32,000 nucleotides of DNA, taken from positions 90,001 to 122,000 of the forward strand of contig NC_000909.1 of assembly GCF_000091665.1 (NCBI RefSeq). The letters run 5' to 3'. This document shows positions 7,161 through 28,230 of this stretch, in pieces. The number at the start of each line of letters is the position of its first letter. Position 1 is the stretch's first letter. The notes under the pieces are model-generated. The model searched no databases. It was not told the origin of the DNA and saw nothing but the letters and a program-made list of their open reading frames with translations. This stretch comes from Methanocaldococcus jannaschii DSM 2661 (GTDB lineage Archaea; AGJL01; Methanococci; Methanococcales; Methanocaldococcaceae). The position numbers and the translations under genes are program-made.

Positions 7161-7185
7161 AATAAAATGGTGCCGAGGGAGGGAT
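7161..7185 (-). pseudogene. Displaced copy of the tRNA-Met 3' end (T-loop to CCA plus trailer)
   Basis: tggtgccgagggagggat at 7168-7185 is identical to 7426-7443, the 3' terminus of the intact tRNA-Met. The aataaaa trailer is also shared. Confidence 0.8.
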
Positions 7186-7425
7186 ACAAACGAAACTTTT
7201 AGAAAAAGTTAAACAAAATCTTTCAGATTTTGTAGCCCGAAGCTAACGCTTCGGTTAAATGAAAACTAAAAGAGTTTTCATAGCTGGAAAGCGTAGCTTT
7301 CCATTTCATCAAAATAGGATGCATTGCCTCGCTACGCTCGGCAATGCCTCTTAAAAGAAAGTGGGGTTGCCTCTGGCAACCCTGCTCTGAGTATCCCAAT
7401 AGGGCGAAGCCCTATGGAATAAAAA
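7186..7425. repeat. Modular GC-hairpin chain element, copy B (about 7 hairpins)
   Basis: Hairpins ccgaagc/gcttcgg 7237-7254, gaaaact/agttttc 7261-7279, tggaaagc/gctttcca 7284-7302, gcattgcc/ggcaatgc ~7321-7347, gggttgcc/ggcaaccc 7363-7383, and terminal cccaatagggc-gaa-gccctatgg 7395-7417. Confidence 0.8.
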
Positions 7426-7537
7426 TGGTGCCGAGGGAGGGATTCGAACCCTCGACCTCCCGGTTTCCCAGGACCCAGGCGTAAAGCCTGGGATATCCGT
7501 ATGAGCCGGGCGCTATAACCAGCTAAGCCACCTCGGC
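7426..7537 (-). tRNA. tRNA-Met (CAU, elongator) with a ~35-nt intron after position 37; CCA encoded
   Basis: Minus strand reads GCCGAGG...GCGCCCGGCTCATA[CGGATATCCCAGGCTTTACGCCTGGGTCCTGGGAA]ACCGGGAGGTCGAGGGTTCGAATCCCTCCCTCGGCACCA. Acceptor, anticodon and T stems all pair. The intron carries a 7-bp hairpin. Confidence 0.93.
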
Positions 7538-7628: not shown

Positions 7629-7716
7629 GCGGGGGTCGCCAAGCCAGGTCAAAGGCGCCAGATTGAGGGTCTGGTCCCGTAGGGGTTCGCGGGTTCAAAT
7701 CCCGTCCCCCGCACCA
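7629..7716 (+). tRNA. tRNA-Leu (GAG), long variable arm, CCA encoded
   Basis: GCGGGGGTCGCCAAGCCAGGTCAAAGGCGCCAGATTGAGGGTCTGGTCCCGTAGGGGTTCGCGGGTTCAAATCCCGTCCCCCGCACCA. The cloverleaf pairs correctly. The anticodon loop is TTGAGGG. Confidence 0.93.
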
Positions 7717-7724
7717 AATATTTG

Positions 7725-7802
7725 ATAGCGGGTTAGAAGAGGCATTGCTTCCATTAGGAAGCAATGTATCCTGGGTATAGCAATAGGGCGAAGCCCTATG
7801 CT
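7725..7802. repeat. Modular GC-hairpin element, short copy E (2 hairpins)
   Basis: gcattgcttcc-atta-ggaagcaatgt at 7742-7767 and caatagggcgaagccctatg at 7781-7800. The second hairpin has the same apex as copy B. Confidence 0.7.
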
Positions 7803-7830
7803 TTAAACCCCATCCCCCGCACCAAATATT
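7803..7830 (+). pseudogene. Displaced copy of the tRNA-Leu 3' end (T-loop to CCA plus trailer)
   Basis: aaaccccatcccccgcaccaaatattt versus genuine aaatcccgtcccccgcaccaaatattt (7698-7724), ~25/27 identical. Confidence 0.8.
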
Positions 7831-7957
7831 TTGAGCTTTTTTTAATTTGGACAATATTAGTAACTGCAAAATCTTCTTTTAGAATAATAATAACCCAATA
7901 TAACAAGATTGTTTAAATTGTTTTTAATTAATGTAAATATTTGAATGTTGTGGGATT

Positions 7958-11580: not shown

Positions 11581-11641
11581 AATACCACCAAAATACCAAT
11601 TCGAAAGTTTTAGCATATTCAAACAATATAAAATCTTCAGA

Positions 11642-11833
11642 TTGGACATTAATTGGGACTGAAAGTCCCAACTTAATGGACGTGTGGTATCCACACCATA
11701 AAGGGGCTACGCCCCTCTTGGGATACTCCCCTAATATTGCTAATTTACACCTCCGAGCATAAGCGAGGAGGTGTTAGGTTTTGATGAACCTTTTACTAAA
11801 AGGTTCATACCAATAGGAGGTTTCCTCCTATGG
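11642..11833. repeat. Modular GC-hairpin chain element, copy C (6 hairpins)
   Basis: ttggacattaatt-gggactgaaagtccc-aacttaatggac 11642-11681, gtgtgg-tat-ccacac 11682-11696, aggggc-tac-gcccct 11702-11717, acacctcc...ggaggtgt 11748-11775, atgaacctttt-act-aaaaggttcat 11783-11809, ccaataggagg-ttt-cctcctatgg 11810-11833. Confidence 0.8.
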
Positions 11834-11836
11834 TAG

Positions 11837-18251: not shown

Positions 18252-18352
18252 ATTTTTATTCCATATTGGTCTGATTTTAATGAAATGTTTATTCTTGGAG
18301 AGCCACACATTATTTGTGATGAGTTTCCATTCCGAATCGGTCTGATTTTAAT
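18252..18352 (-). CRISPR. Mini CRISPR array 2: one canonical repeat, one spacer, one degenerate terminal repeat
   Basis: Repeat gtttccattccgaatcggtctgattttaat at 18323-18352. Degenerate copy atttttattccatattggtctgattttaat at 18252-18281. Spacer of 41 nt. The leader homolog follows directly. Confidence 0.8.
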
Positions 18353-20211: not shown

Positions 20212-20244
20212 ACAATCTAATCGTAGTTGTTGGTGTTTATCTTA
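20212..20244 (-). pseudogene. Displaced, diverged copy of the cdhD 3' end
   Basis: 20212-20244 versus 20338-20370 is 27/33 identical. The fragment reads KINTNNYD*, the gene reads KLNTNNYEWIVSP*. Differences are mostly third-position. Confidence 0.65.
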
Positions 20245-20259
20245 CGTATTTAACTAAGC

Positions 20260-20333
20260 TTGGACATTAATTGGGGCTGATAGCCCCAACTTAATGGACG
20301 GGAGGTATCCCAATAGGAGGTCTCCTCCTATGG
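20260..20333. repeat. Modular GC-hairpin element, copy D (2 hairpins)
   Basis: ttggacattaatt-ggggctgatagcccc-aacttaatggac followed by tatcccaataggagg-tct-cctcctatgg. The last 6 nt overlap the final Pro codon and TAG stop of cdhD. Confidence 0.8.
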
Positions 20334-21545
20334 GCTGACAATCCACTCATAGTTGTTTGTGTTTAGTTTAACCTCTCCTGGCTTGGTTGTTAGAGTTTTT
20401 CCAATCTCTTTCAGTGTTTTAACTGATATTGGATTGAGCATCATGAATAAATCTACTCCACACATCATCATCGTAATTCCAGTAGTTATTTCCCATAATG
20501 GTAATCTATACTCTCTTGGCCCCCATTCAGGATTGTTCATCCATGCCTCTCTTGCTCCAATAGCGTTTGTTGTTCCAGATGACATTGGCATATTAACCAA
20601 CTCATCTCCCTTCAATCCATTTAATCTTAATCTAACCATTGCGTTGATTGAGAACTCAATCCCATAACCTAAAGCACATGTTGTTGGATCCATAACTATT
20701 CTATTTGGGTCCAAACCAGCTTCAACAAGTTTTCTATTTAAATCTCTCGCCATATTTGGGTCCATAATACTCCATGCTAATACGTTGTGGTCATATTTCA
20801 TAGCTGCATCAACTATCTTTTTATAATCCAACTCCAAGTTTGCTGAAGCTAATAAGCATCTATCTCCTTCTGCTACTTCAGCACATGCTTCCAAAACTAA
20901 AGGGTCTTTTTGAGGATTTCCACTACCTCCAATAACAAATGGAACATCAACTGCCTGTAATAAATCTTCCATTAATTTTGCAGCTTCTTTTGGACTTTTA
21001 TCTTTAATTTTTGGGTCTGTGGAGATGTGGTGAATTGTTATCATATCTGCCCCAAATTCTTTAACACACTTCTTTGCCCATTCGCAAGGGTCTTCCATAA
21101 CATCCTGGAAAAACTGCCTAATTGGTTTTGGTAATCCTGGCATTGGTATATCGAATATATCGAAAGTAACAACTGGTGGATTTGGCTGTGGTTCTTCAAA
21201 TCTATATAAAGCTCTCTGTCCCCCAATTTTCACAACTTTTCCTCTTCCTCCTTCTGATTTTGGTTTTCCAAATTGGACTTCTCTTATATATCCAGGATAT
21301 TTTTCAACTGGTGGTTCCCAATCTAACTCTGGGACATCTTTAATTTCTATAATTCCTTCTTCAGCCAATTTTTCTTTTATTGATGGTGTTTGAGGAATAA
21401 CTATTGGAGGGGCTGATGGGATATTTATAATTAATTCATCTGCGGTGATTTTTATATCCTCAATCTCAATTCTACCAACTTTTTCAATGATTTTTATCAA
21501 AGTATTTAAATCCATAACCTCACCCAATCTGTCATTATAAATCAT
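20328..21545 (-). CDS. cdhD: Acetyl-CoA decarbonylase/synthase delta subunit (corrinoid/Fe-S protein small subunit)
   Basis: 405 aa with a pterin-binding-like TIM barrel region (ADMITIHHISTDP...). Paired with cdhE. Confidence 0.92.
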   Translation of the reverse strand: MIYNDRLGEVMDLNTLIKIIEKVGRIEIEDIKITADELIINIPSAPPIVIPQTPSIKEKLAEEGIIEIKDVPELDWEPPVEKYPGYIREVQFGKPKSEGGRGKVVKIGGQRALYRFEEPQPNPPVVTFDIFDIPMPGLPKPIRQFFQDVMEDPCEWAKKCVKEFGADMITIHHISTDPKIKDKSPKEAAKLMEDLLQAVDVPFVIGGSGNPQKDPLVLEACAEVAEGDRCLLASANLELDYKKIVDAAMKYDHNVLAWSIMDPNMARDLNRKLVEAGLDPNRIVMDPTTCALGYGIEFSINAMVRLRLNGLKGDELVNMPMSSGTTNAIGAREAWMNNPEWGPREYRLPLWEITTGITMMMCGVDLFMMLNPISVKTLKEIGKTLTTKPGEVKLNTNNYEWIVSP

Positions 21546-28051: not shown

Positions 28052-28184
28052 AAAAAAGATGTATCTACCCTTGGAAAACCGTGGCCTTCATTGAAGCCAT
28101 AACGGCTACTCGGCACGGCCGCCTTGTGGGTAGAATGCCGAGGTGGTTTCATCCCCTGCGGAAGGTCGCCACCCGGGACATATA
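28052..28184 (-). ncRNA. GC-rich structured small RNA candidate, class unknown
   Basis: ~130-nt GC-rich island in AT-rich intergenic DNA. On the minus strand a TATA box aaaatatatata (28206-28217) lies ~25 nt upstream, and T7 (28051-28057) follows ...GGGTAGATACATC. Strong helices include CTCGGCA/TGCCGAG and an interrupted long-range closing helix. ORFs called here are implausible. Confidence 0.55.
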
Positions 28185-28230
28185 TTAATTTATGCAAATT
28201 GTGGTATATATATTTTATTCCAACAATTAT

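Follow-up and report, generated by a model that had tools for sequence, protein, structure and literature searches.

The heat-loving Methanocaldococcus jannaschii was the first archaeon to have its genome sequenced, and to our knowledge the movement of its roughly 140 palindromic repeats has been unexplained so far. Palindromic repetitive elements of this organism, MJRE1-3, were reportedly described by Suyama, Lathe and Bork in FEBS Lett in 2005. They are reported to be dispersed GC-rich palindromes of ~100 bp that lie mostly between genes, with a few in coding regions that they do not destroy. In organism, kind and location they thus resemble the hairpin family described below, and an insertion in cdhD reported here fits the picture. 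The 2005 paper is said to describe neither long target duplications nor insertions into tRNA T-loops. Our family is probably that of the MJRE repeats.

The REP and BIME sequences of enterobacteria, like the family here, are GC-rich imperfect palindromes that form mosaics of modules in either orientation and lie between genes, at gene ends. However, REPs do not duplicate their target and are linked to RAYT (Y1) transposases, whereas the family here has long flanking duplications. Mobile GC clusters are found in AT-rich mitochondrial genomes of yeast (GC42 clusters; PMC4478555), and mitochondrial double-hairpin elements (DHEs) in Allomyces (Paquin et al. 2000, as cited in PMC4478555). They share with the family here the GC-rich palindromic modules in an AT-rich genome, the merging and shuffling of units and the lack of an encoded transposase (PMC4478555). 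In contrast to the 20-60 nt seen here, the flanking repeats of mitochondrial GC clusters measure 2-3 nt (AG, ACT), and no targeting of tRNA T-loops is reported for them (PMC4478555).

Long, variable-length direct repeats are created by IS1634 of the IS4 family, to go by a title cited in PMC1798306 and PMC2266710. IS1634 resembles the family here in its long and variable target duplications, but is autonomous, with a transposase and terminal inverted repeats, of which the elements here have neither. Cas1-mediated CRISPR spacer integration and casposons duplicate roughly 15-37 bp of target, which again is similar, but their duplications are of fixed length and their inserts have a defined size or terminal inverted repeats, neither of which is evident in the family here. 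Casposons in addition favour tRNA 3′ ends. Among the integrase att sites in tRNA genes, a T-loop sublocation class is said to have been described by Williams in NAR in 2002. There, as at the tRNA inserts reported here, the insert lies between direct repeats that run from the T-loop to the 3′ end, and the tRNA stays intact. Unlike at att sites, the repeat here is copied from the target, the insert has 78-230 nt and no integrase, and non-tRNA targets are duplicated too.

Results

Duplicated tRNA 3′ ends in the window

The window, i.e., the whole stretch of 32,000 nucleotides analysed here, has 31% G+C and carries three tRNA genes, for tRNA-Met (with an intron), tRNA-Leu(GAG) and tRNA-Sec. The radical-SAM protein encoded beside tRNA-Leu is MJ0103 of M. 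jannaschii, residue for residue, and the region is that around MJ0101-MJ0104.

A search of the window for repeats identified a direct repeat of 30 nt at tRNA-Leu (7694-7723 and 7802-7831), with copies 108 nt apart from start to start and 78 nt in between. The initial annotation had proposed a duplication of ~27 nt recurring ~105 nt downstream; its 27-mers lie at 7697-7723 and 7805-7831 (25 of 27 positions identical), and the duplication is confirmed in the longer form. The core of the repeat, the exact 19-mer TCCCCCGCACCAAATATTT, is present twice in the window, against zero copies expected from 100 shuffles. The 78 nt between the copies indeed consist of two hairpins, as had been read from the sequence, with a DNA minimum free energy of -29 kcal/mol (z = -7.05; none of 200 shuffles was as stable). 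The locus, in window coordinates, is composed as follows.

7629..7716, + strand: tRNA-Leu(GAG), intact, CCA encoded (ARAGORN; 51.1 bits against the Rfam tRNA model; orthologous loci have an identical sequence over the 44 nt of the 3′ segment that were compared)
7694..7723, + strand: proximal (functional) target copy, from T54 of the T-loop through the T-stem 3′ strand, the acceptor 3′ strand and CCA to a 7-nt trailer (repeat search)
7724..7735, + strand: junction filler of 12 nt, GATAGCGGGTTA (sequence reading, junction analysis)
7736..7771, + strand: hairpin A, GAAGAGGCATTGC..GCAATGTATCC (DNA fold, family alignment, compensatory changes)
7772..7801, + strand: hairpin B, TGGGTATAGCAATAGGGCGAAGCCCTATGC (DNA fold, family comparison, junction analysis)
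7802..7831, + strand: distal pseudo-copy of the tRNA-Leu 3′ end, 27/30 identical (repeat search)
7837..7843, + strand: run of 7 T after the distal copy, ancestral flank (sequence; comparable T-run in empty sites)

The insert is exactly a 66-nt unit of hairpin A plus hairpin B, preceded by the 12 nt of filler, and no nucleotide separates the end of hairpin B from the distal copy. The run of 7 T is likely to serve as a transcription stop for read-through from tRNA-Leu.

The neighbouring, divergently oriented tRNA-Met gene is built in a comparable manner.

7426..7537, - strand: tRNA-Met(CAT), interrupted by an intron of 37 nt (60.6 bits against the Rfam tRNA model, which leaves 37 nt of the anticodon loop unaligned; ARAGORN with introns allowed)
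7422..7449, - strand: proximal (functional) copy of the tRNA-Met 3′ end (repeat search)
7192..7421, - strand: composite insert behind tRNA-Met, modules M1-M4 (sequence reading, family comparison)
7164..7191, - strand: distal pseudo-copy of the tRNA-Met 3′ end, with the T-loop GTTTGTAT in place of GTTCGAAT (repeat search)

Here, the two copies agree at 26 of 28 positions and are separated by 230 nt. Read from the tRNA, M1 is a reversed hairpin B, M2 is GGGTTGCC..GGCAACCC, M3 is hairpin A, and M4 is TTTTGATGAAA..CTTTTTCTAAAAGTTTCG, with more modules nested within its loop. The repeat begins at G53/T54, so that the earlier observation of a common starting position in the T-loop (T54 in tRNA-Leu) holds. 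The exactly matching block measures 19 nt at tRNA-Leu and 22 nt at tRNA-Met, and the mismatches between copies all lie at the T-loop/T-stem end. The identical module that had been noticed in both inserts is the 20-mer CAATAGGGCGAAGCCCTATG, found at 7397-7416 and 7781-7800 with zero occurrences expected by chance. Relative to the tRNAs, this hairpin has opposite orientations: it adjoins the pseudo-copy at tRNA-Leu and the real tRNA at tRNA-Met.

Comparison with related genomes

The orthologous tRNA-Met/tRNA-Leu loci of relatives were retrieved through the neighbouring protein. The divergent tRNA pair was found without insert or second copy in ten Methanocaldococcus genomes or assemblies, namely M. 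fervens, M. lauensis, M. vulcanius, FS406-22 and M. bathoardescens as well as the Methanocaldococcus assemblies L045, L046, L048, L049 and L051. Furthermore, the sequence that follows the distal copies in M. jannaschii is the one that directly follows the tRNA in these relatives; behind the distal tRNA-Leu copy, the ancestral flank TGAGCT..TTTTTT corresponds to that at the empty sites in M. vulcanius and M. bathoardescens. Into the 3′ end of the tRNA-Leu(GAG) gene, a mobile repeat that is small and non-autonomous has inserted in a lineage-specific manner; we are highly confident of this insertion and of the target duplication that accompanied it. Since ~30 bp of target were duplicated in the process, the tRNA gene is still complete, and a second, non-functional 3′ end now lies 108 nt downstream. 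The initial annotation had also taken the tRNA-Leu and tRNA-Met events to be independent, with which the empty sites in the ten relatives and the difference between the elements (a 66-nt two-hairpin unit versus a four-module composite) agree.

It had been considered from the outset that the second copy might belong to a decayed full tRNA paralog. For such a paralog, a tandem duplicate of tRNA-Leu, nothing but the repeat itself would speak. Upstream of the distal copy there is no tRNA-like sequence according to ARAGORN and Rfam (searched up to E = 10), the interval is made up of repeat modules, and the second copy is absent from the ten relatives. Because the relatives have neither the hairpins nor the second copy, we exclude a decayed paralog and give it practically no chance of being correct.

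The metagenome-assembled genome 4571-419 (locus L010) also carries the tRNA-Leu insert, with a more decayed distal copy, and has the tRNA-Met insert in a reduced version. The filler GATAGCGGGTTA of M. jannaschii includes GCGGGTT, which is the T-stem 5′ strand of tRNA-Leu plus TT, and at the filler position the L010 ortholog reads GATAGCTAATTA. We also considered a tRNA-like structure in a read-through transcript, as the tRNA 5′ strand can pair with either copy by symmetry and the GCGGG of the filler could pair with the pseudo-acceptor. This idea was dropped because the GCGGG is not conserved in the L010 ortholog.

The repeat family and its footprint

Scanning the 18-nt core of hairpin B against one genome per species yielded 24 Methanocaldococcus loci in 5 genomes, which together with the two copies in the window gives 26 copies; the remaining matches, from bacteria, were unrelated and due to chance. 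When oriented by this hairpin, most copies constitute one unit of 66-69 nt, in which hairpin A, (T)AAGAGGCATTGCC..GGCAATGCATCC, is followed by hairpin B, YGGGTATMCCAATAGGGCGAAGCCCTATGG. In an alignment of 14 copies, compensatory changes affect 6 of the 10 stem pairs of hairpin A. Over the copies, 98% of cells are paired and 7 pairs show double changes, values that were reached by none of 500 shuffles. The modules are joined in varying order and orientation. A census of hairpin loops mainly reflected the way in which the copies had been ascertained. One further cluster of the family lies in the window.

11640..11835, no strand assigned: multi-module hairpin cluster between two genes, without clear flanking duplication (window search)

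The family thus shows what is expected of dispersed palindromic repeats, i.e., many copies within and between genomes and a hairpin structure that is conserved over these copies. Moreover, it is polymorphic for insertion, with occupied and empty orthologous sites at tRNA-Leu, tRNA-Met and cdhD. The repeat family is dispersed in Methanocaldococcus, modular, GC-rich and palindromic, and the tRNA-Leu insert represents its two-hairpin unit of 66 nt. No Rfam family covers the inserts, either at the gathering threshold or at E up to 10, and only the two tRNAs score; no hit within the inserts came near a gathering score. Searching the retrieved loci by nhmmer with a profile of the element gave essentially no copies beyond the known ones. 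An extrachromosomal source was considered and rejected, as exact-pattern scans of viral contigs gave no match to the element and blastn against plasmids and phages gave none to the tRNA-Met insert.

Most copies of the family lie away from tRNAs, and long duplications accompany them there as well. Flanking direct repeats exceeded the 95th percentile of 200 random-position controls in 17 of the 26 copies. At about 15 non-tRNA sites, the two-hairpin element is flanked by local duplications (16-59 nt) that are as long as those at tRNAs or longer, and counted outside the element, the duplications of ten independent events measure 16-59 nt. Where the insertion is nested inside another module, 9 and 21 nt are duplicated, such that lengths over the whole family range from 9 to ~60 bp, mostly 21-59. 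Because hairpin copies away from tRNAs are still flanked by long local duplications, the duplication is a property of the element and not of the tRNAs.

The flanking repeats usually overlap the start or stop of an open reading frame. Either the last 37-55 nt of a gene are duplicated (L009, L037/L011) or its first 35-58 nt together with the upstream region (L034, L032, L038), and where two genes abut, the duplication spans the stop of one and the start of the next (L014, L019). One case in the window is of this kind.

20212..20365, no strand assigned: non-tRNA family member at cdhD, with modules at ~20262-20335 after a 22-nt filler and a 28-nt duplication (20212-20239 / 20338-20365) (window search, translations, empty sites)

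At cdhD, the element inserted 12 nt ahead of the stop codon. The live gene now reads into the element and its product ends in ..NTNNYEWIVSP, while the displaced copy encodes ..NTNNYD followed by the stop. In two relatives the site is empty and the gene is a single uninterrupted copy, ending in ..NYDWIVAKA (L053) and ..NYDWITA (L054). Duplication of a long target segment is the regular mark of this hairpin family, and it keeps both neighbouring genes intact.

Insertions behind tRNA genes

The annotation had called for a scan of tRNA genes for partial copies of their 3′ ends downstream and for a check of whether the boundaries of the duplication always fall in the T-loop. Among the tRNAs of the retrieved loci, six independent events were found in five tRNA species (Leu, Met, Ile, Gln and, twice, Val), and in all six the repeat runs from T-loop position 53/54 to the T-rich trailer. 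The scan was an ungapped search for a downstream copy of the last 20 nt of the tRNA. Such a copy was present at 1-6 mismatches in tRNAs with inserts, with the exception of tRNA-Gln, which is missed because an indel hides the copy. The tRNAs without inserts (Sec, Arg, two Thr, Pro, Tyr, Lys, Asp) gave background only, with at least 8 mismatches. In the L008 cluster, lower mismatch scores arise because adjacent tRNA genes match.

Of the 26 copies of the 18-mer, six are located directly behind tRNAs (Leu twice, at orthologous sites, Met, Ile and Val twice). For comparison, tRNA genes together with their trailers are estimated at well under 2% of the non-coding DNA, a figure that assumes ~37 tRNA genes, which we take to be the number in M. 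jannaschii, and that is set beside the 26 ascertained copies.

Some variants of the element were seen at tRNAs only. The variant of hairpin B with a compensatory GC..GC stem was found exclusively in tRNA-associated copies (Leu, Val). The four-module composite M1-M4 occurs only at Met, Ile, Gln and Val; its M1-M2-M3-M4 order is repeated behind tRNA-Ile (L016) and tRNA-Gln (L041), and a metagenome scan with the 19-mer across the element/pseudo-T-loop junction of tRNA-Met returned tRNA-Gln, tRNA-Val and one unrelated hit. Among the copies found, two sublineages of the element are therefore restricted to tRNAs. The junction of the composite is always CTAAAAGTTTCG-TTTGTAT, leading into the pseudo-T-loop GTTTGTAT for GTTCGAAT in four tRNA species. 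Although the composite is the same, the acceptor segment after the pseudo-T-loop is the host tRNA's own. The Met, Ile, Gln and Val tRNAs that bear it all have a TTCGAAT loop, which none of the 9 other tRNAs seen has.

A site-specific mechanism that recognises the T-arm and acceptor end had been suggested on the basis of tRNA-Leu and tRNA-Met. The constant T-loop-to-trailer bounds in six events and the two tRNA-only sublineages speak for this, but the duplication also occurs at ~15 non-tRNA sites, nothing points to recognition of the acceptor end, whose duplicated segment is derived from the target and differs between tRNAs, and no recombinase is associated with the elements. Given that the element duplicates its targets in general and that tRNA events with T-loop and trailer bounds recur, the suggestion is supported in part. 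The duplication mechanism is general to an archaeal hairpin-repeat family, probably one already known, and not specific to tRNAs, so that the notion of a tRNA-directed process of constant geometry was partly right. The constant geometry could also be explained without a protein that reads the T-arm, either by homology between the element end and the sequence of T-loop and trailer or because these two are the only AT-rich islands around a GC-rich block.

Discussion

The footprint of the hairpin family does not fit standard transposases, nor does it fit the integrases that target tRNA genes. We also considered a classical MITE and rejected it, since the ends of the element, (T)AAGAGGCAT.. and ..GCCCTATGG, do not repeat one another in inverted form and each module is its own palindrome, and since the duplications measure 9, 21, 28-41 and 50-59 nt and not a fixed 2-10 bp. 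Insertion of a family member combined with a staggered opening of the target is, to our mind, the best explanation overall, and we hold it with somewhat better than even confidence; the mechanism as such is proposed more tentatively and has, in our judgement, a little less than an even chance. Each strand of the target would be opened once, with tens of bases between the two openings, the element DNA would be joined into the opened target, and the gap would then be filled in. A trans-acting activity would recognise the hairpin structure and not terminal inverted repeats. At tRNA genes, the opening positions would be set at the T-loop and the T-rich trailer. One candidate reason for these fixed positions is that only two islands next to the GC-rich acceptor block, the T-loop and the trailer, may be AT-rich and easy to open; a second is that the ends of the tRNA-associated sublineage resemble the T-loop (GTTTCG-TTTGTAT versus GGTTCGAAT).

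Several points speak against staggered opening and fill-in. No candidate enzyme came to light, and nothing akin to the element was found in viral contigs, plasmids or phages. The duplication length varies far more than for any ordinary transposase, and simple fill-in does not account for the constant pseudo-T-loop GTTTGTAT in four tRNA species. With respect to the junctions, one tends to be ragged (median filler 9.5 nt) and the other exact (median 0), but at p = 0.2 (Wilcoxon) this asymmetry is only a hint.

An enzyme-free process of replicative copy-choice might generate similar structures. A nascent strand that has passed the tRNA trailer would switch to a hairpin element elsewhere, return at the T-loop and copy the segment again; hairpins would stall the polymerase and thus define the switch points, and spread from tRNA to tRNA would proceed via homologies in the T-loop and in CCA plus the T-rich trailer. 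This would account for the variable duplication length, the lack of terminal inverted repeats and transposase, the mosaic modules and the filler, which at tRNA-Leu contains 7 nt of that tRNA's own T-arm. It would likewise account for a composite that is found only at tRNAs with the TTCGAAT loop, always with the GTTTCG-TTTGTAT junction and a host-specific acceptor part. Homology to element ends is seen at the junctions of L037 (8/8), L019 and L032, and gapped junction alignments are suggestive of microhomology in 3-4 events. However, an ungapped test over 20 independent junctions gave a mean of 2.1 matches out of 8, which equals the null expectation (p = 0.54), and return at TTCG predicts ..GTTTCG-AATCC, whereas ..GTTTCG-TTTGTATCC is observed. 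As there is no excess of microhomology, we place template switching below joining and fill-in and regard it as rather unlikely.

Ectopic integration by a Cas1-type enzyme, either the CRISPR adaptation complex or a casposase, would require that a tRNA 3′ end be taken for a CRISPR repeat. We know of no other well-known prokaryotic integrase chemistry that duplicates ~30 bp of target, and casposons integrate at tRNA 3′ ends. Over ~18 events, duplication lengths gather near 26-31 and 34-41 nt, and CRISPR repeats have 30-31 nt here and ~37 nt in relatives. In reverse complement, the tRNA end (AT-rich start, GC-rich middle, ..TTCGAAC) loosely resembles ATTAAAAT..GGAAAC, and several copies of the element lie inside or beside CRISPR repeats (L006, L003, L008). 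All the same, Cas1 is an improbable agent: the duplications of 9, 21 and 50-59 nt would hardly fit a ruler, the inserts (43-230 nt) are not spacer-sized, terminal inverted repeats are absent, and the non-tRNA targets have no repeat-like motif in common. Even less probable is a SINE-like, RNA-mediated retroposition, in which an RNA with hairpin B at its end would serve as template for reverse transcription at a nick in the target. The expected outcome is an exact junction on the 3′ side, one that is ragged or truncated on the 5′ side and a target duplication of variable length, and in agreement with this, hairpin B is joined exactly while filler is found at the other end, the tRNA-Val copy in L030 is 5′-truncated, and duplication lengths vary. 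But there is no A-tail, the filler at cdhD is on the opposite side relative to the gene, the asymmetry of the junctions is not significant (p = 0.2), and the loci examined showed no reverse transcriptase; we know of none in Methanocaldococcus.

The direct repeat of the tRNA 3′ part that brackets the insert at tRNA-Leu and tRNA-Met, as in attL/attR, raises the question whether the repeats are scars of an integrase-mediated virus or plasmid that was deleted to a stub, or of a mini-element mobilisable in cis. In tRNA genes, direct repeats that begin in the T-loop and extend past the 3′ end are the classical signature of a tyrosine integrase. Yet only 78 nt lie between the tRNA-Leu repeats, all of them chromosomal repeat modules, and neither the 78-nt nor the 230-nt insert contains an integrase ORF or a fragment of one, the ORFs across them being only spurious and overlapping the tRNAs. 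There is no match to a virus or plasmid either. Furthermore, one and the same family is flanked by tRNA-specific repeats at five tRNAs and by unrelated repeats at the ends of protein genes, which argues that the repeat is target-derived and not an attP carried by the element. Because of this origin of the repeat and the absence of an integrase, we reject an integrase scar, and the chance that it applies is very slight.

Returning to the joining of hairpin elements into an opened target, one may ask what kind of element this would make them. The thermostable hairpin modules may represent a new class of mobile DNA that has no transposase or terminal inverted repeats of its own and would move by replication-associated or Cas1-like integration with duplication of 20-60 bp. 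Its tRNA sublineages would home to the T-loop and trailer through the resemblance of their ends, and the long duplication, by regenerating the gene end, would be an adaptation to scarce intergenic space. This is a speculation, and we consider it doubtful in this full form.

What the long duplication does allow is that hairpin elements land in the ends of closely spaced genes, which are not destroyed thereby. These repeats were recently mobile, as sites that are filled in one genome and empty in a close relative indicate. Taken together with the long duplications that preserve gene ends and with the T-loop-to-trailer hits of some sublineages, this makes the movement of the repeats a testable question. 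In the literature searched, which left out the 2005 MJRE paper, we found no description of gene-end-preserving long duplications or of targeting from T-loop to trailer. For annotation, it follows that a piece of a tRNA 3′ end close to a tRNA gene should not, in these genomes, be taken for a prophage att site. In addition, gene termini beside such repeats may be altered, an example of which is the changed C-terminus of CdhD.

Variation among copies of the hairpin element

The hairpin A-hairpin B unit behind tRNA-Leu(GAG) is preceded by a 12-nt filler, in which GCGGGTT (window 7728-7734) repeats the 5′ strand of this tRNA's T-stem and the two bases that open its T-loop without a mismatch. Such a match to the tRNA's own T-arm would, roughly estimated, arise by chance with a probability of a few percent; the ortholog of this insert carries GCTAATT at the corresponding place. 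The tip of hairpin A also differs between the orthologous insertions, being TTCCATTAGGAA in the window (7749-7760) and CGAGCGTTAGCGAG in the related MAG 4571-419 (L010 5934-5947). Since both tips are found in other copies of the family, the comparison of these sequences suggests exchange or gene conversion among family copies.

A different kind of change is seen in two MAGs (L019 1107-1321 and L033 950-1100), which have an identical junction on the hairpin B side, but unrelated sequence on the opposite side of the element. Because the agreement is restricted to one side, these sequences are suggestive of a rearrangement at the repeat.

Insertion into modules, a gene and CRISPR repeats

At least five different hairpin modules are clustered between two minus-strand genes (window 11640-11835), and no flanking duplication is detectable around this cluster, which may be older or may have been assembled through nested insertions. 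Two nested insertions share an entry point in the loop of another module, after CTAAAAG of the hairpin of M4 (the last module of the four-module composite found behind certain tRNAs), with duplications of 21 nt and 9 nt (L029 3628-3870; L020 1400-1560). Hairpin loops may be preferred entry points for insertion.

In cdhD (window 20212-20365), hairpin modules entered 12 nt upstream of the stop codon with a target duplication of 28 nt, such that the CdhD C-terminus now reads ..NYEWIVSP and runs into the element, as compared to ..NYDWIVAKA in a relative (L053).

The window also contains CRISPR repeats:

2299-2531, small CRISPR array with four repeats
18323-18352, solitary CRISPR repeat of the GTTTCCATTCCGAAACGGTCTGATTTTAAT type

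Repeat 1 of the array (GTTTCCATTCCGAAACGGTCTGATTTTAAT) belongs to another repeat family than the remaining three (..TTTCCATCCTCYAAGAGGTCTTATTTTAAT). In relatives, CRISPR repeats are interrupted by hairpin elements (L006 656-830; L003 1560-1810), and in L006 the duplication comprises the initial 21 nt of the CRISPR repeat; the elements therefore occupy the position of a spacer.

Other features of the window

28091-28185, GC-rich island of approximately 95 nt, ending in ..GGGACATATAT
7426-7537, tRNA-Met(CAT) with a 37-nt intron

The island lies within an AT-rich intergenic region and is a candidate for a structured small RNA. No Rfam family came near threshold for it, the best match being a weak, archaeal H/ACA-like one on the minus strand (E = 0.33). 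When ARAGORN was run without intron search, tRNA-Met(CAT) was wrongly assigned the anticodon tta, which would read a stop codon.
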